Assembly (NCBI GenBank): GCA_012270585.1
Contig: JAAXIB010000020.1
Span: 13,187 to 77,186, forward strand
Direction: 5' to 3'
DNA: 64,000 nucleotides
From: Nitrospirales bacterium
GTDB taxonomy: Bacteria > Nitrospirota > Nitrospiria > Nitrospirales > UBA8639
Part shown: piece by piece, positions 38,608-49,690 of the stretch
Position numbering within the stretch: position 1 is the first letter of the stretch
How the letters are laid out: each line of letters opens with the position of its first letter
Notes under the pieces: generated by a model
The model's database searches: none
Seen by the model: only the letters and a program-made list of their open reading frames with translations
What the model was told of the DNA's origin: nothing
Made by a program: the position numbers and the translations under genes

Positions 38608-38907
38608 TCAGTCAGCCTCGGCAGTCGCAATCGATGCGATGTTTGCCAACAGCCATGCGGAGGCAGCAAACAACTGCAGCCAATCCCCACTGGAGCTGAT
38701 CCCGTAAGTCAGCATGCTGGCAATCCAGCAAACGCTGGCAACCGTTTGTCCGAGCCATTCGGCGCGCAGCGCCCGTGCTAGTCGGCTTTGCCCCGCGCCA
38801 GACGCGATCCCCCTCCTCGCGGCCTCGCTCGTCGCGTTCGGTCCGCTCGAAGGCGCGGCGAGCGCCCACCCGGCGACCCCTTCGTCGTTCCTCGTCAACA
38901 TACGCAC
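38608..38907 (-). CDS. hypothetical small membrane protein
   Basis: 99 aa. The C-terminal half has two hydrophobic helices (...TVASVCWIASMLTYGI...WLQLFAASAWLLANIASIA...). Confidence 0.4.
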   Translation of the reverse strand: MRMLTRNDEGVAGWALAAPSSGPNATSEAARRGIASGAGQSRLARALRAEWLGQTVASVCWIASMLTYGISSSGDWLQLFAASAWLLANIASIATAEAD

Positions 38908-40025
38908 TCCTCCCCACAGCAGGAGAGGTCATCGAGATACATGCCCCACTTGCGGTAATTCTCCAACTCTTCAGCCGGCAGCCCCAGGGAACCGGCAATC
39001 GCCTTGGCAACCACGGCGAATCGCTGTCGATATTTGTAGATAAAGCAAAAGGAATGGTTATTGTGACGCACGGCGGGCCCGCACAGAAACAGACCCGGCA
39101 CAATTGTTGATTCATCGTGCTCGCTCATGAGCGGAAAGCCGTCGTCGCGTCGCTCGAACAAATCTGCGACCAGCTTGTGACTTCCTTCAAATCCGCCCGC
39201 CCAGAGTGGCGGAACGCTCGTTTGAAACCGGCGTCCGTCCTGCGCCGTGACTTCATACGTGGCGCCCACGCGGGTGACAGAGGCTATTGGCGTTTGCGGA
39301 AACAATTCCACATACTCCTCAAACCAATCTTCTCGCATCCGTTCGAGCGAATACGTGGACAGCGCGACACTGGGATCGGAACTTTGGTCTTTCCATGGAC
39401 AACCTTTGTCGAACAACCGTACCCGTTTGTCGCGATACGCCAGGTGGTAGGCCGCGTCGACGCCACTCTCGTAGCCACCGACAATGATGAAGTCGTCTCC
39501 GTCAAGATCTTCATAACTGGCAATTGTTGCCGTGTGTCGACAGAGTCCGCTGCCGACAAACCCGTTCAGACGTGGGTATTGGAATTCACCGGCCGCCCAA
39601 ATGACATGCCTGGCTCGCAAGGCCTCGTCGGCCGTATCGATGCGAAAAACGTCGCCAACTTTTATGATCCCCGTCACGCTGGTCTTCTCGCGTATCGGTA
39701 ACTCGAAAAACTTCGCGACTCCCCGCAAGTGCGACGCGTATTCCTCGCCCGTCGGATGCTCAACCTCCAAGCTGAACGCGGGCGAAACACCAATCGCGAT
39801 CGAGTTCAAATCGAGCATGCCAATCGAATTGGTCGGAAACGAGGGGGTGATGAATCGAGTCTCGGCCGGCCATGAGGCAAACGACGATCCGACCGTGTGT
39901 CGCTCGAGCACGATAAAGTTCTCAATACCCGCATGCCTGAGGGCTATCGCAACCCCCACACCCGCGGCACCACCACCGACAACTACGACATCGTAAGTCT
40001 TGACGTTACTTGCAATCGTCATCAA
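38895..40025 (-). CDS. FAD/NAD(P)-binding oxidoreductase with Cys-rich C-terminal tail
   Basis: 376 aa. YDVVVVGGGAAGVGVAIAL dinucleotide fold, a second fold ...FIIVGGYESGVDAAYHL..., and the C-terminus ...DDLSCCGEECVC. Confidence 0.7.
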   Translation of the reverse strand: MMTIASNVKTYDVVVVGGGAAGVGVAIALRHAGIENFIVLERHTVGSSFASWPAETRFITPSFPTNSIGMLDLNSIAIGVSPAFSLEVEHPTGEEYASHLRGVAKFFELPIREKTSVTGIIKVGDVFRIDTADEALRARHVIWAAGEFQYPRLNGFVGSGLCRHTATIASYEDLDGDDFIIVGGYESGVDAAYHLAYRDKRVRLFDKGCPWKDQSSDPSVALSTYSLERMREDWFEEYVELFPQTPIASVTRVGATYEVTAQDGRRFQTSVPPLWAGGFEGSHKLVADLFERRDDGFPLMSEHDESTIVPGLFLCGPAVRHNNHSFCFIYKYRQRFAVVAKAIAGSLGLPAEELENYRKWGMYLDDLSCCGEECVC

Positions 40026-40817: not shown

Positions 40818-42068
40818 CTAGGCATCGGGAGATTCCGGTGACAACCAGTCGGGAAACGGATCGGAAAATGACCTCCACCCCTCGGCCCCCAGGCTCATCT
40901 CGGCATCCGTCAGCAAACAGGCGTCCAATCGCCGACTCAGTGCCGCTTGATCGACATTCTGTCCGATCACGACGAGTTCCTGCTGGCGGTCACCATAGAC
41001 CGGATCCCAAATCGTCTCCAATCGCTTTCGCTCTTCGTCATCCACCTCCCACTGATCACGGGGGAGCGTCGCATACCAGCGTCCTCCACCCTGTAAGACG
41101 CCTGTCCCACCGGCCTGGGACCAGATCCCAACCCAATCGGGACGAGAGGTCAGCCAGATAAATCCTTTTGATCGCAAAACTCCCTTCCAATTTTTCTGAA
41201 CCATTGCCCACAGACGCTCAGGATGAAAGGGCCGCCGGGCCACATAGACGAAACTCCGAATGCCGTATTCATCAGCTTCCGACCGCCATGCCCCCCGCAA
41301 GATCTGCATCCATCCCGCTGCGCGGCTCGCCCGCTCCAAATCAAACCGGTTTGTCCGGAGCACCTCCACCAAGGACACCCGTCCCTGTTGGGCCGGCACG
41401 ATCTGCGCATCCGGATTCAGTACCCGCAGAATGGCGGTCAACTCGGCCAGTTGCGCATCCGACACCGTATCGATTTTGTTGATCACCAGCACGTCCGCAA
41501 ACTCCACCTGGTCAATCAGCAGATCCGTCACCGTCCGTTCATCCTCTTCACCCAGTTCGAGCCCCCGCTCTTTCAGGTCCTCGGACGCCTGATAGTCGGC
41601 CAGAAATGTTCCCGCATCCACCACGGTGACCATCGTATCCAATCGGGCCACCGAGGAGAGCGACCGTCCCATCTCATCCTGAAAGAAAAACGTCTCGGCC
41701 ACGGGCAAGGGCTCGGAAATTCCGGTGGATTCGACCAACAAATAATCGAAGCGTCGGGCTTCAGCCAGCCGGGCCACTTCCTGGAGCAAGTCCTCACGGA
41801 GGGTACAGCAGATGCAGCCGTTACTCATTTCCACCAGCTTTTCTTCGGTCCGGCTCAGGGCCGCCCCACCCTGGGCGATGAGAGCGGCATCCACATTCAC
41901 ACTGCTCATATCGTTGACGATGACCGCCACCCGCAGGCCCTCCCGATTATGCAGAACATGATTCAACAACGTCGTTTTCCCCGCCCCCAGGAACCCGGAC
42001 AGCACGGTCACCGGCAATCGCGCATCACGGACCACAGCCCCATTCATTTCCCTCTCAGCCACATCCAT
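40818..42068 (-). CDS. COG0523 (CobW/ZigA/YeiR-like) metallochaperone GTPase, paralog 1
   Basis: Start set at [10 protein letters not shown]... with a GGAGCAGGAGG RBS. P-loop [12 protein letters not shown], metal motif [10 protein letters not shown], ...[14 protein letters not shown]..., ...VINKID..., CobW_C domain. Confidence 0.85.
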
Positions 42069-42078
42069 CCTCCTGCTC

Positions 42079-43347
42079 CTATTCGGACTCACGTTCATCT
42101 TCCTGCAGATCAATTTCCAAGGCCGCCTGCGCGAAAGGATCCTCAAACCGGCGCCAACACTCCAGACCCAGCTTCGACTCCGCCGCTGTCAAGAGACATG
42201 ATGCCAGCCGTTGAAACAACCGCTCCCGATCCAACCGGTAGCCGATACAAGCCAAGGCCTGTCGACGATCACCAAACTCCAACGACCAATCCTGGCTCAA
42301 CTCTTTGCGAAAGGCTTTATCGTCAGGCCAATCCGCACAGGGAATCGACGCCCACCAATCCCCGATATATTCGAAAAATCGGCCGCCGGCCGTCTGAGAC
42401 CAGAGAAAACACCGATCGGGTTGTGAGGCAATCCAGAAATGACCTTGGCACCGCAGAATTCCCGGCCAATCGGACTCGATCAGTTCCCATAGCCGCTGCG
42501 GGTGGAAGGGGCGCGTGGCTCGAAAGACCCCCATCGTCCAATAGGACGATCGAATCGTCGGCATCGGCGCTCCCTGGATCAGCTTCGCCCAGCCTGGTTG
42601 AGAACTGATCGGCATCGAGGCAGGAGTACGCTCGTTGACAATCTGTCCCACCACATCCAACCCCTCCGCTATCGATAGGATCGTGGCTTCCGGGTTCAAC
42701 GTCTCGAGCAAGGAGCGGAGACGAGTCTGCTTAGCCAATGACAGCCCCTCGGTTTTGGATATCACCAGCACCGTGGCATACTCCACCTGCTCCACCACCA
42801 GTTCCGACACCGTCCGTCCATCGTCCGTCCCACAACTCGCGCCTCGGGTCTGTAAATCGTCTTCAGAATGCAGATCGTTCCATAACGTCCGGCCGTCGAC
42901 GACCGTGACCAGGTGATCAAGCCACGCCTTCGATGCCAAGGGTTCGCTGTTCTCCCAGGCGTCGTTGAACACTTCGGCGACCAAGACCGGCTCCATCAGG
43001 CCCGAGCACTCGACCAGCACCCGATCAAACCGCTGCATGTCGGCAATCGCCGTGATGGCGCTCGCCAAACTGTCGCGCAAGGAACACCCGACACACCGTT
43101 GAATCAACTCGGCCAAGACTTCACCGAGACGGAAGACTTCGATCCCCAGCGATCGACAGAGGTCCGCATCCAATCCTGCGTCGCTGCGGTCATGGACCAG
43201 CACGGCCAACCGACCGGACGACCGGCCGGCGACAACTTTCTGCACCAACGTGCTCTTCCCGGCTCCGACAAAACCACAGACCACGGTGACCGGAAGCCGT
43301 GTGATCTCGGCTGGACGATAGCCTTTGGGATGGATACCGGGTTTCAT
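42079..43347 (-). CDS. COG0523-family GTPase, paralog 2, variant metal motif and L31-like N-terminus
   Basis: Start set at [12 protein letters not shown].... P-loop [20 protein letters not shown] replaces GCICC. ...[11 protein letters not shown]..., ...VISKTE..., CobW_C-like end. Confidence 0.8.
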
Positions 43348-43496
43348 GGCATCTCCTTGTTCTTCAGCACGAGCACTCACTCTCAGCTCGATTTCCGCAC
43401 ACCAGGGATCTGACCCTGGAGTGCGAGCAGACGAAAATCGATCCGCGCACACTCACCTCCCTACTTCGAGATTGAGAGCTCCAGGCCCTGACTCCA

Positions 43497-43751
43497 TCAG
43501 GATTCGGACTGCCGACCGAACGGTAACAGCGCCATGTGTCGCGCTCGCTTGATCGCTCGTGCAATCTCCCGCTGCCGATGTTGACTATTGCCCGTCATTC
43601 GTCGAGGCAGGATGCGCCCGTTTTCCGTTATGAACCTCCGCAGCCACTCCGCATTTTTCCAATCCACCGGTGTCGTATCGTCGATCACGCGACGGCGTCG
43701 TCCTTCAAGCATGCTCGTTTCTCCATATACGATGAATTGCGCTTGTTTCAT
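43497..43751 (-). CDS. rpsR: ribosomal protein S18 (island copy, Cys-free)
   Basis: ...[50 protein letters not shown].... Start uncertain (M at 43751 or 43712). Confidence 0.75.
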
Positions 43752-43853
43752 GTGGCCCGGACTGAAGCCCTCCCCGATGGCGCTCACGGATACACGTGAG
43801 GTTGCCACACACGGACACGCGTTCAGCCGGACGATCAGAACAATGTGACGAGA

Positions 43854-44162
43854 TCAAACCGCGGCGGGAGGACCCCGCGAATAAGGGACGGACACGAGCA
43901 GGCTCGAAAACTCTTGCACTGAGGGAATCGGCAGGATAGCCGACGGCAACAGCACGGACGGCAGGACAAGGCCAGTTTCAGACAACGATGAACTGGCAGC
44001 CCACTCCAGCCAGGCGTGAACATCGGCATCAGAGTGGTCGGGATCGCCGGCTTGTACGGCGGAATAGTGATCGATCAGCAGGTAGGGCAGGGGCAGAGCG
44101 ACCAGCCCATACAGCATCGCAACGGCGGCGATGAACATCACTCGAATCAACCTGGCCTGCAT
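43854..44162 (-). CDS. hypothetical single-pass membrane protein
   Basis: ORF with one TM (...VMFIAAVAMLYGLVALPLPYLLI...) followed by a His/Asp-containing segment. Weak coding evidence. Confidence 0.25.
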   Translation of the reverse strand: MQARLIRVMFIAAVAMLYGLVALPLPYLLIDHYSAVQAGDPDHSDADVHAWLEWAASSSLSETGLVLPSVLLPSAILPIPSVQEFSSLLVSVPYSRGPPAAV

Positions 44163-44250
44163 CCTTCCTGCCACTCCGATACACTCATCCGTAGCGCGCC
44201 TCGCATGTGAGAGCGCTCTCGTCGAACCCTTGTGAGCCTGATCCAATCCA

Positions 44251-44311
44251 CTCGAATATTTTTCCAGCGCGACCGATCCGGCTTATCCCCGCCTCCGGAA
44301 TGGGCGGTCCG
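44251..44311 (-). promoter_or_regulatory. conserved hairpin element plus adjacent box, copy A
   Basis: The 48-nt core 44264-44311 is 45/48 identical to 53391-53438. On the minus strand: GGACCG-CCCAU-UCCGG-AGGCGGGGAUAAG-CCGGA-U-CGGUC, then GCGCUGGAAAAAUAUUCGAG. Confidence 0.45.
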
Positions 44312-44341
44312 ACGGCCTAACCGCTATTCATGTCCAGCCCT

Positions 44342-44647
44342 CTACCAGCTCGACTTTCTCACTCCGGGAATACCCCCTCGTAATGCCAACAAACGAAAAT
44401 CGATGCGGGACATGCCGAATCGTCTCAGGAACCCACGGGTCCGGCCTGAAATAAGACATCGGTTTCTCACTCGGCTTGGGCTGGCATTGCGGGGCAGCGC
44501 CTGCAGCCCCCGCTGCGCCTCCATCCGCTCTTCCAAAGAAGACCCAGGATTTCTGATAACTTCCTTTAAAATGGTTCGTTGTTGGGCGTACTGCTTCACC
44601 ACTTCTTTTCGTTTTTCATTTTTAATGATGCAACTTTTTTTGGCCAT
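44342..44647 (-). CDS. rpsN: ribosomal protein S14 (island copy, long 101-aa C- form)
   Basis: [24 protein letters not shown]...[43 protein letters not shown]. Start set at ATG 44647. Confidence 0.85.
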
Positions 44648-44816
44648 AGGACCTTCCTTTTCCTCAAGGTGTGAAGCTTTCTCCATATCCTCTTTTTGGA
44701 TAAACCATTGTTTTGGGTAATTCGTCCACCAATCTCGACCAACCAATCGTTCCCTGAATACGCTGGCTGGTTGGCAATCAAGCACAACTGGGCAGTGAGA
44801 GAAACGAGCTTAGGGG

Positions 44817-44833
44817 TTGAAAATGATTTGAAA
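44817..44833. promoter_or_regulatory. TTGAAAATGATTTGAAA, Zur-box-like imperfect palindrome upstream of rpsN
   Basis: From memory it matches 12 of 15 positions of the actinobacterial-type Zur consensus TGAAAATGATTTTCA. It lies about 175 nt upstream of the S14 start in a lower-GC spacer. Confidence 0.3.
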
Positions 44834-45248
44834 CGCCAACTGAAGGCTAGCTCACCAGCGATAGTTTCTGCCGTGTATACTTATATGCGGACACTTCGCT
44901 TTCATGAATAACTTTTCAATGAGCATCCAAAACTATTAAATGAAAGGTATGTTTTCTGGGGACGAGTGTACGACGAAGAGGAACGGTCGAACGAAGAAAT
45001 GTGGGATTTTCACAAGTTCGTTTGATGGCTTTCTGAACTTCGGTGGGACGGTAGCCAAGATTAATCAACGCAGGGGCATGGCTTGTCGGATAAAAACGGC
45101 TTGGGTAAAAATATACGCAAGCCGTTGTCAAGTTCGACGGGAATTCGGTGAACCGATTTTCAGCTACTCAGGCGAATAATAGACTTCGTAGGCAAACTGT
45201 CAAGCCTATGATCGCGTAGCCCGCGCGCGGATTGAAACTCAGTTGCAG

Positions 45249-45404
45249 TTAAATACGGCTTGAGGATTTGCAGCGCCCGCTGCAGCAATCACCACATACG
45301 CATGACGCGTCACAGCGACAAACTTCAGTTCCACAACAGCAGTCACACGCCGTTGTCTTGCATGCACACTTGCCATTTTTGCAGCATCCACAGGAATCTT
45401 TCAT
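45249..45404 (-). CDS. 51-aa cysteine-rich metallothionein-like peptide
   Basis: MKDSCGCCKNGKCACKTTACDCCCGTEVCRCDASCVCGDCCSGRCKSSSRI has 16 Cys in 51 residues. GGAGGAG RBS 7 nt upstream, 13 nt after the merR-like stop. Confidence 0.6.
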   Translation of the reverse strand: MKDSCGCCKNGKCACKTTACDCCCGTEVCRCDASCVCGDCCSGRCKSSSRI

Positions 45405-45417
45405 TGCTTTCTCCTCC

Positions 45418-45852
45418 TCATTTTTCGCAGCACTCCCAATTGTTTTCAAAGCAATCCAGGAGCCTGCATTCAGAATCATTCGACGCTTGACTTCCACAGA
45501 TTAGGGAAAACTCGTGGAGCATTCCCACCATCCTATTCAAGTCGGCTATCTTCTGTTCAATTTGATCGATCTTCTCGTGACAAGTCTTTGCAATAAACGG
45601 TCGTGTTTCTCGGGAACAAAGAGCAAGGTCCAGGAGATCTTGAGCGTCTTTGAGAGAGAATCCAAGCCCCTGAACTCTCTTGACAAACTTGATAATCCGC
45701 ACATCAGATTCCGAGTACTTTCGAAAACCTGACGTTCGAAACGGCTTATCCAGAAGACCCTTCCTGTGATAAAAGCGGACTGTCTCTACCCCAACCCCGG
45801 CTGCCTTGGCTAGGGTTCCAATCGTCATCAGTTCTTTATCGGTCTTTTTCAT
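45418..45852 (-). CDS. MerR-family metal-responsive transcriptional regulator
   Basis: HTH ...MTIGTLAKAAGVGVETVRFYHRKGLL...R...GFRKYSESDVRIIKFVKRVQGLGFSL.... Cys residues in the dimerisation helix and C-terminal loop (…LICGSQASNDSEC…) plus the tail NNWECCEK. Start is ATG 45852 or 45828. Confidence 0.85.
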   Translation of the reverse strand: MKKTDKELMTIGTLAKAAGVGVETVRFYHRKGLLDKPFRTSGFRKYSESDVRIIKFVKRVQGLGFSLKDAQDLLDLALCSRETRPFIAKTCHEKIDQIEQKIADLNRMVGMLHEFSLICGSQASNDSECRLLDCFENNWECCEK

Positions 45853-45857
45853 ATCTG

Positions 45858-45890
45858 AAGTATGCACTCCGTACCTCAGTACGGAGTCAA
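45858..45890 (-). promoter_or_regulatory. mer-operator-like promoter (long spacer with perfect dyad)
   Basis: Minus strand: TTGACT-CCGTACTGAGGTACGGAGTG-CATACT. The dyad ACTCCGTAC-N4-GTACGGAGT (45866-45887) sits between -35 and -10 with a 20-nt spacer. The half-sites TCCGTAC/GTACGGA are those I recall from Tn21/Tn501 merO. Confidence 0.55.
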
Positions 45891-46365
45891 GTTTTTTTTC
45901 ACCCGCACCCGCTGGCCGCGAGCACGGGAAGAGGGGAGTGACCCTATACGGCGAGCCACAACGGCCGCGAATCGTCGAGTGGTTCCAGCAGTTCGATTGA
46001 TCTGAGAGGAGAGTCCTCTTGTAAGCTTCCTGACATGGTATTCTAACGTCATACTGTAGGCCTGAGCCTGGGAATAAGAATTATAAAAGGCCTTTTTGGG
46101 TAAGCGGTAACCTACCAAAGGCCCCGTGCCGGGTCAATTTGCCGACAGTCCCGTCTGATATCTGGAAGTGCCTCCTGCGAAGAGGGGCTGACCGGCCCAT
46201 TTTCCCTGGATCGGGGCAGGTTGTCGCTCCATGGTGGCGGGTGCGAGCCGAAAACGGGTACAGGGAGCCTGTCTGGTCGAGTGGCGACCCGGACTCCGGC
46301 GAGAGGTTAGGCGGTCTGTATGAAGGGGGCGAGACGGGCCGTGAGGGTGGGCCCTCTCGAGAAAG

Positions 46366-46689
46366 CTAGTCGGTCTCGTAGCCCGGCGGGTACCAACGTC
46401 CCGGCGGCTCCCACATCCCGTCGTCGTTTTGAACGGTGAGGACGCGCACGCCGTCTTTCGTGACCGCCAGGGTGTGCTCGCATTGGGCTGATAGTTTGCC
46501 GTCGATGGTGACGGCGGTCCAACCGTCGTCGAGGATCTCCATCTCCCAAGCACCTTCGTTGATCATGGGCTCGATGGTGAAGACGAGGCCGCTCGACTCG
46601 TAGAAATTGACGCCGTTGGTGTTCTCTTTCATCACACGGTGAATAGGAAATTTAAAAGGCCTTTTTGGCTTGAACTGGAAAGTCGCCAA
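46366..46689 (-). pseudogene. map: 3' fragment of a methionine aminopeptidase gene
   Basis: Only the last ~75 residues match Map (...[52 protein letters not shown]...). The N-terminal two-thirds of the enzyme are missing. Confidence 0.6.
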
Positions 46690-46928
46690 GACGGTACGAA
46701 TGGGTCAATCAGGGATCGGAAATGGGGTCGGGTCTTGCCATAACCCATCCCCCTTGAGGTAATCCTCGTAGCCTGATTCCCAAGGAGAGTGACGAGCGGG
46801 CGTCGAGTCGAAATTGTAAAAAGATTCCTGGGAGATGTGGCATGGCAAGCCTTGAAGTGGCCCCATATCCTGCTTTGGCAATTGAATAGAATATGACGTG
46901 TCACGTTTTGGCCCGCACATCGGAAACC

Positions 46929-47243
46929 TCAGTGCTTGCCATGTGAATGCCCTCCATGCGACCGGCAATCATGTCCACAGCCTTGTATGCCCAACCCGCC
47001 ACCGTAAATGTTTTTGAGCGTGGGAGGAGGAGCGGTCGAGCCCGGTGGAGGATCCGATGACGCCCGGCTTTGGGCCATAACATCAGCCCCTGCCGAAAAC
47101 ACTGACGGGGTCTTCTCCAACGGTGCCCCGCATTCGCGACAGGCCGTCACCGGGGCATCATGCATGTTCTGCCAAAAGGCAAACCGCTTAGGACAAAACA
47201 GCGATTTCAAACAATATTCGGCTTGATATTCATAGATGGGCAT
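46929..47243 (-). CDS. FmdB-type zinc-ribbon-like small protein with degenerate first CxxC and a His-rich tail
   Basis: MPIYEYQAEYC...CPKRF...ACRECGAPLEK.... The C-terminus is ...GCGHDCRSHGGHSHGKH. Start set at ATG 47243. Confidence 0.5.
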   Translation of the reverse strand: MPIYEYQAEYCLKSLFCPKRFAFWQNMHDAPVTACRECGAPLEKTPSVFSAGADVMAQSRASSDPPPGSTAPPPTLKNIYGGGLGIQGCGHDCRSHGGHSHGKH

Positions 47244-47577
47244 ACACTTCCCTTTCTTTTTGCCCAATCAGCACCAAGGCATGATCCGGTTCTTCCCGGA
47301 GTTGAATGGGGCCGACCCACCGCCAGGCGGGTCGTGAAAATTGCACCTCATGCAAAGCATTGGAGTCAGCAAATCGACAAAACCCTTTCACCCGTTCGAT
47401 CCCATCGGGCAGGTGTTCACACCATTCAAGAAACCGTGCACGATTCAGGGGACGCGGCAACGGAATCGTCGCCACCATCGGATGACAAGACGGATAAGAA
47501 AAAACCGTCCCCTGCCTTGCTTTATGCCTCATACTCGCCAAGCAGGGTTGACGGAACGGGCTGTTTGACTGCAACAT
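47230..47577 (-). CDS. stand-alone CobW_C-like domain protein (possible COG0523 remnant)
   Basis: ...FSYPSCHPMVATIPLPRPLNRARFLEWCEHLPDGIERVKGFCRF...HEVQFSR...ALVLIGQ... resembles only the C-terminal domain of COG0523 proteins. Start uncertain (47577 or 47532). Confidence 0.45.
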   Translation of the reverse strand: MLQSNSPFRQPCLASMRHKARQGTVFSYPSCHPMVATIPLPRPLNRARFLEWCEHLPDGIERVKGFCRFADSNALHEVQFSRPAWRWVGPIQLREEPDHALVLIGQKEREVYAHL

Positions 47578-47585
47578 TGCCCACC

Positions 47586-48887
47586 TTATTCGTCTTTCGT
47601 TCTTTGAAACACCGTTACCCCGACGACCATTGTCCGGACCGCCGCACCGCGAAGTCGCCACCCCGCAAACGGGCTGTTCCGCCCCTTCGACCGAAACCGT
47701 TCCGGATCAACCGTCCATTCCATCCTTGGATCGATCAACACCACATCAGCCTGTGCCCCGGCGGCCAACGTCCCGCACGATAGACCCAACAAACGGGCCG
47801 GGGCTGACGTCAGTTTTTCTATCATGGATTCCAGGGACAACAGGCTCTCTTCTACCAGCCGAAGAGAAAGCCCTAAGGCCGTTTCAAGTCCGACTATTCC
47901 AAAAGGAGCCTTGGACAATCCCCACTGCTTCTCATAGGCAGCATGCGGAGCATGATCGGTGGCTATGGCATCAATGGTGCCATCCTGCAACCCGTCGCGG
48001 ACCGCCTGGATATCCGCATTTCGACGGAGGGGAGGATTCATTTTCGCCAATGCGCCTCGGTCCCGCACCGCCTCTTCGGTCAGCATGAAATGATGGGGGC
48101 AAGCTTCCGCAGTCACCCGAATTCCGGCGACCTTGGCCGTCCGGACGGCCTCCACCGCATTCGCCGTACTGATATGCGCGATATGCAGATGGCATTCCGT
48201 TGCCTTGGACAACGCGATATCCCGTTTCACCATCTTGGATTCCGCTTCAGAAGGGATGCCTCGGACTCCCAAGAGACGGGAAAGGGGGCCCTCAGCCATA
48301 CATCCGCACCCGGCCAATGACAGATCTTCGCAATGATCGATCACCGGCAGATCCAAGGCCCGAGCCTCTAACATCGCCTGTCGCATGACGGCATTTTTCA
48401 TCACGGGACGGCCATCATCCGAGACAGCCACACATCCGGCCCCACGTAAGCCCCGAAGGTCTGCCGGCTCTTTCCCTTGTAATCCTTTGGTGATGGCCCC
48501 GATTGGATGTACGCGAACCAACCCGGTAGCATGCACACGGTCGTGGATGGTCTGGGTCACAGCAGGGGAATCATTAACGGGATTAGTATTGGGCATGCAA
48601 CAGACGGTCGTAAACCCACCGGCAGCGGCTGCAGCGGTCCCAGTCTCAATGGTTTCTTTGTACTCGAACCCCGGTTCCCGGAGATGGACGTGCAGATCCA
48701 CCAAACCTGGCGCCACAATCAACCCGTCGGCCTTGAAGTGGTCGGCATGTGAGGGAAGAGCCGTCTGTGGAGGCGTCACCTCGGCGATACGACCCTGCCT
48801 GATCCAGACATCCCCCCTACCGTTCCATCGTCCAGGGTCGATAACCCAACCGCTTACGATGATGAATAAATCGGCAGGATGGTTCAG
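47586..48887 (-). CDS. pyrC: dihydroorotase (island copy); start codon unresolved
   Basis: ...DLHVHLREPGFEYKETIETGTAAAAAGGFTTVCCMPNTNP..., ...ATDHAPH.... The track ORF extends into the ZIP gene. No ATG/GTG/TTG lies between the ZIP stop and the conserved N-terminus; CTG at 48887 after GGGGGA is the best candidate. Confidence 0.8.
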   Translation of the reverse strand: MNHPADLFIIVSGWVIDPGRWNGRGDVWIRQGRIAEVTPPQTALPSHADHFKADGLIVAPGLVDLHVHLREPGFEYKETIETGTAAAAAGGFTTVCCMPNTNPVNDSPAVTQTIHDRVHATGLVRVHPIGAITKGLQGKEPADLRGLRGAGCVAVSDDGRPVMKNAVMRQAMLEARALDLPVIDHCEDLSLAGCGCMAEGPLSRLLGVRGIPSEAESKMVKRDIALSKATECHLHIAHISTANAVEAVRTAKVAGIRVTAEACPHHFMLTEEAVRDRGALAKMNPPLRRNADIQAVRDGLQDGTIDAIATDHAPHAAYEKQWGLSKAPFGIVGLETALGLSLRLVEESLLSLESMIEKLTSAPARLLGLSCGTLAAGAQADVVLIDPRMEWTVDPERFRSKGRNSPFAGWRLRGAAVRTMVVGVTVFQRTKDE

Positions 48888-48895
48888 GGATCCCC

Positions 48896-49690
48896 CTAGT
48901 GCGGGAACATGGTCAGCATGCCGATGGTCACCATTCCGGTCAGCATCATGGCAAACGGCCAAGCCCCACTGGCCGCCCCGTGTCGGCCATGTAAGCCGGG
49001 AACCAGATCGGCAAGACCGATATACAAAAAACTGGCGGCGGCCAACATCAGGGCATAGGGCACGATCGGCTCCGCATAGGCCAAGCCCCCAAACGCCAAC
49101 ACCACCCCTGCGAGGGTCGCCATACCAGACAGGGTATTGGCCCAAAACGCCTGCCACCGGGAAAATCCGCTCGACAGCAGAATGGTGAAGTCACTCAACT
49201 CCTGCGGAATTTCATGACCCAGAACCGCCAACGTCGTGACCAGACCCAGAGCAGGGGATACGACACAAGCCACGCCGATGGCAATACCATCGGCAAAGTT
49301 ATGAACAGCATCGCCGACCAGGATCAATGTTCCGGCTTCTCGGCGAACCGTCAGGCCCTTCGCATGCCCGTGAGGCTTGAGCTCAGCAGCCTCCCCGTGC
49401 GCATGACGCCAGATCACCATCCATTCCAGAACAAAGAACAGGACCAGCCCCGCCAACAAAGCGATGCCCGCCTCATTAATCGAAATGTCTTCGAGTGCCT
49501 CGGGAAGCAGCCCGATGGTCGCGGTCGCCAGCATCGTGCCGGTCGCAAATCCCAGCAGATTCGGCATCATCCATTGCCGCCACCCATCCGGAATAAACAG
49601 AATCAGACCGGCAGGTAATAAGGCGCCCAAGCTGCCCAGTAACCCCATCAAGACGACAAACATCCATGTGGATTCTTGGGGCAGGTTCAC
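48896..49690 (-). CDS. ZIP-family (ZupT/GufA-like) divalent metal transporter
   Basis: 264 aa, about 8 TM. ...GDAVHNFADGIAIG..., ...LAVLGHEIPQELSDF.... Histidine-containing loop HAHGEAAELKPHGHAKG. Confidence 0.85.
   Translation of the reverse strand: MNLPQESTWMFVVLMGLLGSLGALLPAGLILFIPDGWRQWMMPNLLGFATGTMLATATIGLLPEALEDISINEAGIALLAGLVLFFVLEWMVIWRHAHGEAAELKPHGHAKGLTVRREAGTLILVGDAVHNFADGIAIGVACVVSPALGLVTTLAVLGHEIPQELSDFTILLSSGFSRWQAFWANTLSGMATLAGVVLAFGGLAYAEPIVPYALMLAAASFLYIGLADLVPGLHGRHGAASGAWPFAMMLTGMVTIGMLTMFPH

Follow-up and report, generated by a model that had tools for sequence, protein, structure and literature searches.

What does a MerR-family regulator serve when the gene directly behind it encodes a 51-residue peptide, nearly a third cysteine (Cys), that gene finders almost always pass over? 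The question is raised by positions 45,249 to 45,890 of a 64,000-nucleotide (nt) stretch of a Nitrospirales bacterium genome (GenBank assembly GCA_012270585.1, contig JAAXIB010000020.1, positions 13,187 to 77,186), which is referred to below as the window. A first-pass annotation of this DNA, made from the letters alone, had read the peptide as an unrecognised metallothionein-like product under MerR-type control. Conservation of the pair, purifying selection on the peptide and the lack of a match to any known family all speak for that proposal, and the regulator-peptide module is apparently an undescribed family, metallothionein-type and with a dedicated metalloregulator. On balance, we judge it probable that the two genes form a self-regulated bicistron, pairing a MerR-type regulator that responds to a soft divalent metal with a cytoplasmic, metallothionein-like sequestering peptide.

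Conservation of the regulator-peptide pair

A word-indexed protein search returned 177 relatives of the regulator, of which about 70 (60-97% identity) came from marine metagenomes; the few of these with a named source were assigned to Planctomycetota, Pirellulales, Blastopirellula or Rhodopirellula. A genome scan (one genome per species) returned 80 loci, 20 of them in a peptide-bearing clade (L001-L019 and L033) in which a Cys-rich open reading frame (ORF) of 40-51 amino acids (aa) directly follows the regulator. Closest to the window are Nitrospira/Nitrospirales metagenome-assembled genomes (MAGs; L001-L007), with regulators 91-94% identical. The other loci come from Planctomycetota (L008-L015; regulators 61-72% identical), the isolates Psychromonas arctica and P. 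aquatilis (L016 and L018), a Pseudomonadota MAG (L017), Alteromonas (L019) and Bacteriovorax (L033). Five further metagenomic places carry the same pair. The first-pass annotation had named retention of the small ORF beside homologous regulators as a check, and regulator, peptide and operator stand together in 25 of 25 clade loci from four phyla, the hosts being Nitrospirales sponge symbionts, marine Planctomycetota, Psychromonas/Alteromonas and Bacteriovorax. Across the genome scan the peptide coincides exactly, one to one, with a regulator tail of the form LL[DE]CF[ED]NxWxCC, and it is absent from the other ~60 more distant MerR loci. Flanking genes differ between lineages; since the neighbours change from locus to locus, the pair itself is taken to be the functional unit.

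The peptide and its gene

The peptide (MKDSCGCCKNGKCACKTTACDCCCGTEVCRCDASCVCGDCCSGRCKSSSRI) is 51 aa long (5.2 kDa) with 16 Cys (31%), lacks His, Phe, Tyr, Trp, Leu and Pro, and has no signal peptide. Its CCC, CC and CxC motifs and its composition are those of the metallothionein class, and no other comparably Cys-rich ORF was found in the window. The conserved Cys skeleton, C-x-CC-(x4-C-x-C-x4-C)-x-CCC-x4-C-x-C-x3-C-x-C-x2-CC-x2(4)-CC, begins at residue 5, and there is no leader-like region. In an alignment of 21 peptides, 14 of 14 core Cys columns are invariant and the long form (~45-51 aa) has 17 Cys columns; the window peptide has 16 Cys through one Cys-to-Arg change, all other long-form relatives having 17. 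Every Cys column contains both TGT and TGC codons. The ratio of nonsynonymous to synonymous substitution rates (dN/dS) is 0.06-0.35 within Nitrospirales, and the Planctomycetota peptides keep the Cys skeleton intact with synonymous sites saturated: the peptide frame is under purifying selection. The GGAGGAG in a 13-nt gap before a 51-aa, 16-Cys peptide, read in the first pass, was found as described, and a GGAG-type Shine-Dalgarno sequence lies at the same distance 5' of the peptide ATG in most related loci (the comparison is off for L010, where the peptide start used was later revised). Many loci also have a hairpin with a T-run, resembling an intrinsic terminator, 3' of the peptide stop. The invariant Cys skeleton, mixed Cys codons, dN/dS and conserved Shine-Dalgarno sequence argue that the small ORF is a real protein-coding gene.

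Neither Pfam nor NCBIfam holds a match to the peptide at E<=1, as expected of an unrecognised family; PF02069 (the BmtA/SmtA family) is among the Pfam models without a match at this threshold, which, together with the missing His, bears out the claim that the peptide is unlike the His-containing SmtA pattern. A peptide profile searched against PDB sequences gave no match even at E<=10. The word-indexed protein search with the single peptide sequence likewise gave none, an exhaustive HMMER search of 1.84 billion representatives gave one (a 49-aa protein), and a profile search found two called members (P0121 and P0122) among 5.8 billion protein clusters. One further gene call, of 44 aa, was found in a MAG. 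Nine predicted peptides, including those of both RefSeq Psychromonas genomes, were looked up exactly in a 15-billion-protein collection and none was present. The peptide gene is almost never called by gene finders.

The peptide alignment is too variable for a regulator-independent search of related loci. A relaxed Cys-codon DNA pattern (without the GSN-GAY codons) applied to metagenomes matched only (TGY)n microsatellites, with family members in 0 of 120 loci returned, and a strict pattern (TGYTGYTGY-N12-TGY-N3-TGY-N9-TGY-N3-TGYGSNGAYTGYTGY) had no match in viral contigs. A literature search found no description of the regulator-peptide family. Knowledge of bacterial metallothioneins was described as still limited in a 2026 paper that lists only SmtA/BmtA, a Mycobacterium metallothionein, a Salmonella report and Pseudomonas proteins (PMC13578184).

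Promoter and operator

The promoter TTGACT-N20-CATACT is present on the minus strand as first annotated, with the perfect dyad filling its spacer and overlapping the -35 hexamer (Table 1); an over-long spacer of 19-20 nt is typical of MerR-family promoters. The dyad occurs once in the window, and 0 of 100 shuffles matched with three mismatches allowed. Its half-sites had been identified with those of Tn21 merO, and comparison with the merR-merT intergenic sequence of plasmid R100 confirmed this: the merO sequence TTGACTCCGTACATGAGTACGGAAGTAAGGT, which sits there between merR and merT of Tn21 and is present in 2209 plasmid records, has 7-bp half-sites (TCCGTAC/GTACGGA) and a 4-bp separation identical to those of the window operator. 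Two other readings of the dyad were tried, as a plus-strand terminator (no plus-strand gene ends there) and as Rfam uup (a weak match below the gathering score), and both were rejected because its position in the promoter is fixed in other phyla without a T-run.

Among relatives, the -35 hexamer is TTGACT in 18 of 23 listed upstream regions and TTTACT, TTGACC or TTGAGT in the rest (L033, outside this list, has TTGCAA), and the -10 hexamer is TATACT, TAGAAT or TATAAT. In each of the 25 clade loci the dyad CYGTAC-N4-GTACRG sits at the equivalent point of the promoter, and the spacer is 19-20 nt. The regulator ATG (45852) lies 6 nt past the -10 CATACT in the window, and 6-7 nt past it in every Nitrospirales locus and almost every Planctomycetota locus (farther downstream in L013 and L211). 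A start codon so close to the -10 suggests that the mRNA of the regulator-peptide unit is probably leaderless.

The regulator

The 144-aa regulator matches PF13411 (MerR_1; 61 bits), PF09278 (MerR-DNA-bind; 43 bits) and PF00376 (MerR; 38 bits), all above cutoffs. Among NCBIfam models it scores highest against Hg(II) MerR TIGR02051 (104 bits vs a cutoff of 150.85), with ZntR (89 bits) and CueR (79 bits) as the next models; the score against NF010315 is 91.8 (cutoff 261). In PDB it matches Tn501 MerR (5crl) and Bacillus MerR (4ua1) best, and identity to Tn21 MerR is 39%. An AlphaFold2 (AF2) model (predicted local distance difference test, pLDDT, 85.6) has the canonical MerR fold: helix-turn-helix, wing, long helix (84-121), loop (122-130) and short helix.

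The C-x9-C spacing and C-terminal ECC noted in the first pass are both present, the Cys being C79, C91, C119-x9-C129, C134 and a C-terminal ..WECCEK. C119 and C129 are present in every clade member, and C79, located where the dimerisation helix starts, in nearly all of them. The three are apparent counterparts of the Tn21 MerR ligands C82/C117/C126, with the alignment of C79 good only to 1-3 residues, and the metal loop (C-x9-C) is one residue longer than the C-x8-C of MerR. The conserved tail LLDCFENxWxCC brings three more Cys (C134, C141 and C142), and the extra Cys may complete a tetrahedral or binuclear metal site. Taken together, the sequence features place the regulator among the metal-sensing MerR-family proteins, in a subfamily of its own; orthology to MerR itself is not demonstrable.

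Sister clades that share the operator

The closest relatives outside the clade are the regulators of L020-L044 (40-50% identity). Most of these loci, and many up to L080, have the operator CCGTAC-N4-GTACGG and a regulator-first layout with the ATG ~6 nt past the -10. The first-pass annotation had called the layout unlike that of mer operons: the promoter does read into the regulator itself, but the arrangement is common to these sister loci, and as a contrast with mer operons the claim was too strong, since Gram-positive mer operons share it. Many of the L020-L044 regulators are followed by an ArsI/CadI-family gene (147-152 bits vs an NCBIfam cutoff of 116 in the three loci scanned), usually with an ArsC gene of the low-molecular-weight protein tyrosine phosphatase (LMW-PTP) type, and the loci look like uncharacterised MerR-type control of arsenic/cadmium genes. 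Examples, found among Bacteriovoracaceae and others, are L028 3427-4307 and L020 3393-3905. Classical mer genes were found only beside still more distant regulators with a CPILE-type tail. The merO-like dyad thus appears to mark a broad MerR clade with interchangeable payloads; because the merO-type operator is common to non-mer sister clades, it is no evidence of mercury, and reflects a DNA-recognition helix that these regulators have in common rather than specificity for mercury.

In a Bacteriovoracaceae MAG (L027 2542-2910, plus strand), the gene immediately upstream of the sister-clade regulator encodes a protein of 122 aa, with 17 Cys arranged in helical repeats of the CxxxC type and no NCBIfam match; this protein may be another Cys-rich metal-storage payload.

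Genomic context

Table 1. Features of the regulator-peptide locus, genes of the surrounding island and MerC-family neighbours in other loci. Positions are those of the window unless a locus is named.
Feature	Position	Strand	Remarks
-35 hexamer	45885..45890	minus	TTGACT; read from sequence
Operator	45866..45887		perfect 9+9 dyad ACTCCGTAC-N4-GTACGGAGT; overlaps -35, fills promoter spacer
-10 hexamer	45859..45864	minus	CATACT; 20-nt spacer after -35
MerR-family regulator gene	45418..45852	minus	144 aa; ATG 45852, stop TGA 45420..45418
Shine-Dalgarno	45411..45417	minus	GGAGGAG; in 13-nt intergenic gap, 6 nt 5' of peptide ATG
Cys-rich peptide gene	45249..45404	minus	51 aa; ATG 45404, stop TAA 45251..45249
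Cassette segment	45230..46203		peptide, regulator, promoter and ~300 nt upstream
ZigA equivalog	40818-42146		620 bits vs cutoff 600
Second COG0523 protein	42079-43452
S18	43497-43808
S14	44342-44647		long form
FmdB zinc ribbon	46929-47267		His-rich tail
CobW_C fragment	47230-47661
Dihydroorotase (DHOase)	47586-49157
ZIP transporter	48896-49690
MerC-family gene	L008 3669-4538
MerC-family gene	L011 3729-4334
MerC-family gene	L019 687-1079
MerC-family gene	L213 4153-4539

Judged by its gene content, the region around the window pair (40818-49690) reads as a zinc-limitation island, the gene order of which is shuffled between sister genomes. Beside the pair there are COG0523 GTPase genes both in Nitrospirales and in three Planctomycetota loci (L009, L010 and L013). 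No Zur/Fur gene was found in the window with E. coli queries. A near-consensus sigma-70-type promoter (TTGACA-16-TATTAT, 11 of 12 matches; 45176-45203, minus strand) lies just 3' of the peptide stop and is directed towards S14.

The absence of merT, merP and merA, as first annotated, holds for the window, where tblastn with R100 MerT, MerP, MerC, MerA and MerE found none at E<=1e-3, and in the 20 genome-scan clade loci the ~3 kb around the pair likewise contained no merA, merT or merP. It needs qualifying in that four other lineages have a MerC-family gene beside the pair, two in Planctomycetota and two gammaproteobacterial (Table 1). These genes score 72-110 bits against the Pfam MerC model (cutoff 27.6) and have Cys in the first transmembrane helix; the translated products from L019 and L011 have CxxHC in that helix and a Cys-rich C-terminus. 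The MerC-family region is often miscalled on the opposite strand by gene callers.

A Pyr_redox_3 flavoprotein that ends in ...LSCCGEEC is encoded ~5 kb from the pair (38895-40025, minus strand). It is 76% identical to a Planctomycete copy (L010 1692-2822) that is divergent from the regulator there, and lies within ~3 kb of the pair in 3 of 20 genome-scan clade loci (copies including L010, L003 and L007). Among NCBIfam models it scores best against the YpdA bacillithiol-disulfide reductase but falls far short of the cutoff, and its vicinal-Cys C-terminus resembles the ...SCC tail of MerA. The flavoprotein could keep the peptide reduced, or act on a metal.

Mobility

The GC content of 45249-45890 is 47%, below that of the window (56%) and of the flanks (57-60%), within a low-GC zone from ~44400 to 46000, and Nitrospirales and Planctomycetota regulators are ~70% identical. 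Between collinear flanks, and at the same place, the ~1-kb segment 45230-46203 has the opposite orientation in L001-L004 and the window orientation in L005-L007 (4 of 7 sister genomes inverted); a search for inverted repeats flanking this invertible cassette found none. Two short ORFs that look like gene fragments lie on either side of it (44916-45131 and 46366-46689, both minus strand), one with a RuvA_C-like piece (Pfam E=4e-5) and the other resembling the C-terminal part of methionine aminopeptidase by eye, with no Pfam match; they may be debris of insertion or rearrangement.

No close relatives of the module were found on 72,556 plasmids or in viral contigs: the peptide had no match among the plasmids, where the BLAST low-complexity filter may hide it, and the regulator had only ordinary MerR matches at <=44% identity. 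The sequences compared show a horizontal distribution of the module across marine bacteria. The bacterial metallothionein families known so far are few (SmtA/BmtA, with the Pseudomonas proteins, and MymT). That the module is a fourth such family, moving among marine bacteria as an autonomous, leaderless sensor-plus-sponge cassette, is a tentative extension that we consider possible and rather doubtful.

Proposed function

In the mechanism that we propose, the MerR-type activator would bind the dyad inside the promoter with the over-long spacer of 19-20 nt and, while metal-free, keep the promoter off. A thiophilic metal bound by the regulator Cys would distort the DNA and switch the promoter on. 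The transcript would begin at or next to the regulator ATG, leaving it leaderless and the regulator probably poorly translated, and would run on into the strongly Shine-Dalgarno-led gene for the cytoplasmic peptide of 40-51 aa with 14-17 Cys, which would be made more strongly than the regulator. Like a metallothionein, the peptide would then buffer the metal by means of thiolate clusters, and by taking away the inducer reset the switch. Metal induction of the operon is expected from the conserved MerR-type promoter.

The sensed metal is most likely a divalent thiophilic ion. As CueR and ZntR illustrate, sensors of +2 ions are distinguished by having Cys, and not Ser, at the first position. Zn(II)/Cd(II) is favoured as the candidate metal because the regulator has Cys at this helix start and because zinc genes neighbour the pair in two phyla. 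Further variations may hold: the regulator tail CFENxWxCC may exchange metal with the peptide, such that apo-peptide strips the inducer and turns the operon off as a feedback timer; the module may be the storage arm of the zinc island in Nitrospirales; and in the MerC-bearing lineages it may import and store a scarce or toxic soft metal, and not be a pure detoxifier.

Several points weigh against the metal-sensing bicistron. The contexts disagree on the metal, pointing to Zn (COG0523/ZigA), to Hg/Cd (MerC) and to As/Cd (the ArsI/CadI sisters). The regulator falls below every NCBIfam equivalog cutoff, and its ligand therefore cannot be read from homology; to our knowledge, its loop is also one residue longer than in characterised members of the family. 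There may be regulator-free copies of the peptide. No convincing terminator was found after the peptide gene in the window, which makes read-through into the S14 gene possible. Finally, a Foldseek search of PDB with the AF2 model of the peptide alone gave no fold match, an uninformative result: the model has low confidence (pLDDT 70), as expected for an apo-metallothionein, and adds no information.

Alternative explanations

One alternative, which we regard as unlikely, is a mercury-specific minimal mer system, with an Hg(II) sensor and a peptide that sequesters Hg(II) in place of reduction by MerA, fed in some lineages by MerC. It would account for the operator half-sites identical to those of Tn21 merO, for MerR as the top NCBIfam and PDB match of the regulator, for apparent counterparts of all three Hg-ligand Cys and for the MerC-family genes beside the pair in four lineages. 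However, the MerR equivalog score is well under its cutoff, the same operator stands in sister loci with an ArsI/CadI plus ArsC payload, merA, merT and merP are missing from the window and from ~3 kb around the pair in the 20 clade loci, and the neighbours in Nitrospirales and three Planctomycetota loci are zinc-homeostasis genes. The conserved C134, C141 and C142 also suggest coordination beyond a trigonal Hg site.

The sister payloads raise a metalloid module, in which the regulator would sense As(III), Sb(III) or an organoarsenical through its three Cys and the peptide would sequester it with three thiols per As. The nearest sister clades (40-50% identity, same operator) do carry ArsI/CadI above cutoff and LMW-PTP-type ArsC, and the hosts are marine or sponge-associated, settings in which arsenic is abundant. 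Set against this, no ars gene adjoins any peptide-bearing locus, the ArsI/CadI family is linked to Cd as well, and we know of no characterised MerR-family arsenic sensor; we consider the metalloid module improbable.

Still less probable is a thiol or redox buffer, with a regulator that senses oxidants or electrophiles and a peptide that acts as a sacrificial thiol sink. MerR-family SoxR and NmlR sense redox or electrophile stress and both are weak NCBIfam matches of the regulator, and the island contains the disulfide-reductase-type flavoprotein with the C-terminal CCGEEC, the 76%-identical copy of which is divergent from the L010 regulator. The Cys triad and loop of the regulator are nevertheless those of the metal-sensing subfamily (best matches MerR, ZntR and CueR), MerC and COG0523 neighbours are metal genes, and the flavoprotein is near the pair in only 3 of 20 clade loci and ~5 kb away in the window. 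The small ORF is short, rich in Cys and hardly ever called, which would fit a precursor peptide that is modified or secreted (a ribosomally synthesised and post-translationally modified peptide, or a toxin) or the lack of any gene; these readings are scarcely credible: no modification enzyme, transporter or protease is conserved beside it, the flanks differing by lineage, it lacks a signal or leader-like region before the Cys skeleton at residue 5, and strong purifying selection with a conserved Shine-Dalgarno sequence excludes a chance ORF.

Significance

The peptide family is invisible to annotation, yet it is conserved in four phyla with a dedicated sensor. If the peptide binds metal, it would represent a new cluster-type metallothionein scaffold without His, the regulator would be a new MerR-subfamily sensor, and the two would make a compact, portable sense-and-sequester part for biosensing or bioaccumulation. 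Sponge symbionts and marine Planctomycetota would then be exchanging metal buffering (of Zn, Cd, Hg or As) as a trait. The module can be tested directly in two hosts available in culture, Psychromonas arctica and P. aquatilis.

Comparison with known systems

One close known system is MerR-merO (PmerT) of Tn21/Tn501, which has a winged-helix regulator with a near-identical recognition-helix region, the TCCGTAC/GTACGGA half-sites 4 bp apart in an over-long spacer, and three ligand Cys with apparent counterparts here. Unlike Tn21/Tn501 MerR, the window regulator (39% identity, below the NCBIfam cutoff) has a C-x9-C rather than a C-x8-C loop, no Pro after the last loop Cys and the extra tail LLDCFENxWxCC; the spacer is 20 nt here vs 19, and a non-divergent promoter drives the regulator itself and a Cys-rich peptide, not merTPCA. 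In Gram-positive-type mer operons (Bacillus RC607, pI258), merR is the first gene and the operator lies in the spacer of a single promoter; the regulator-first layout is the same, whereas the payload there is merT/P/A/B and here one Cys-rich peptide. The ArsI/CadI plus ArsC sister loci (L020-L044) share the operator, the probably leaderless regulator-first layout and, in part, a similar C-terminal C-x4-CF motif, but their payload is an enzyme pair and the WxCC tail is missing.

With regard to the peptide, SmtB/SmtA and BmtA (PF02069) also place the gene for a small cytoplasmic Cys-rich buffer beside its own metal-sensing regulator, and the zinc role of SmtA is a plausible analogue for the window peptide, given the zinc island. 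The window peptide differs from SmtA/BmtA in that PF02069 does not match it, in its lack of His and aromatic residues and in a Cys density roughly twice as high, and the regulation differs from SmtB/SmtA in using a MerR-type activator, co-transcribed with the peptide, vs a divergent ArsR-type repressor. MymT of Mycobacterium, a Cu(I)-binding protein, is much poorer in Cys, and the ciliate Cd-metallothioneins are long and modular, with CCC/CxCC runs in those of Tetrahymena; all are small, Cys-rich, cytoplasmic metal-binding peptides, as the one described here would be, without detectable homology to it.

The nearest functional parallel found in print is CadR-zrd of P. aeruginosa, in which CadR, a MerR-family Cd/Zn sensor, activates zrd, for which metallothionein-like Zn/Cd sequestration has been proposed; Zrd is of the zinc-ribbon type and has two mononuclear Cys4 sites (PMC12301328). 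Unlike Zrd, the window peptide is of a cluster type with 31% Cys, and the regulator of zrd belongs to another subfamily and is not in an operon with it, whereas here the regulator and the peptide form one unit.

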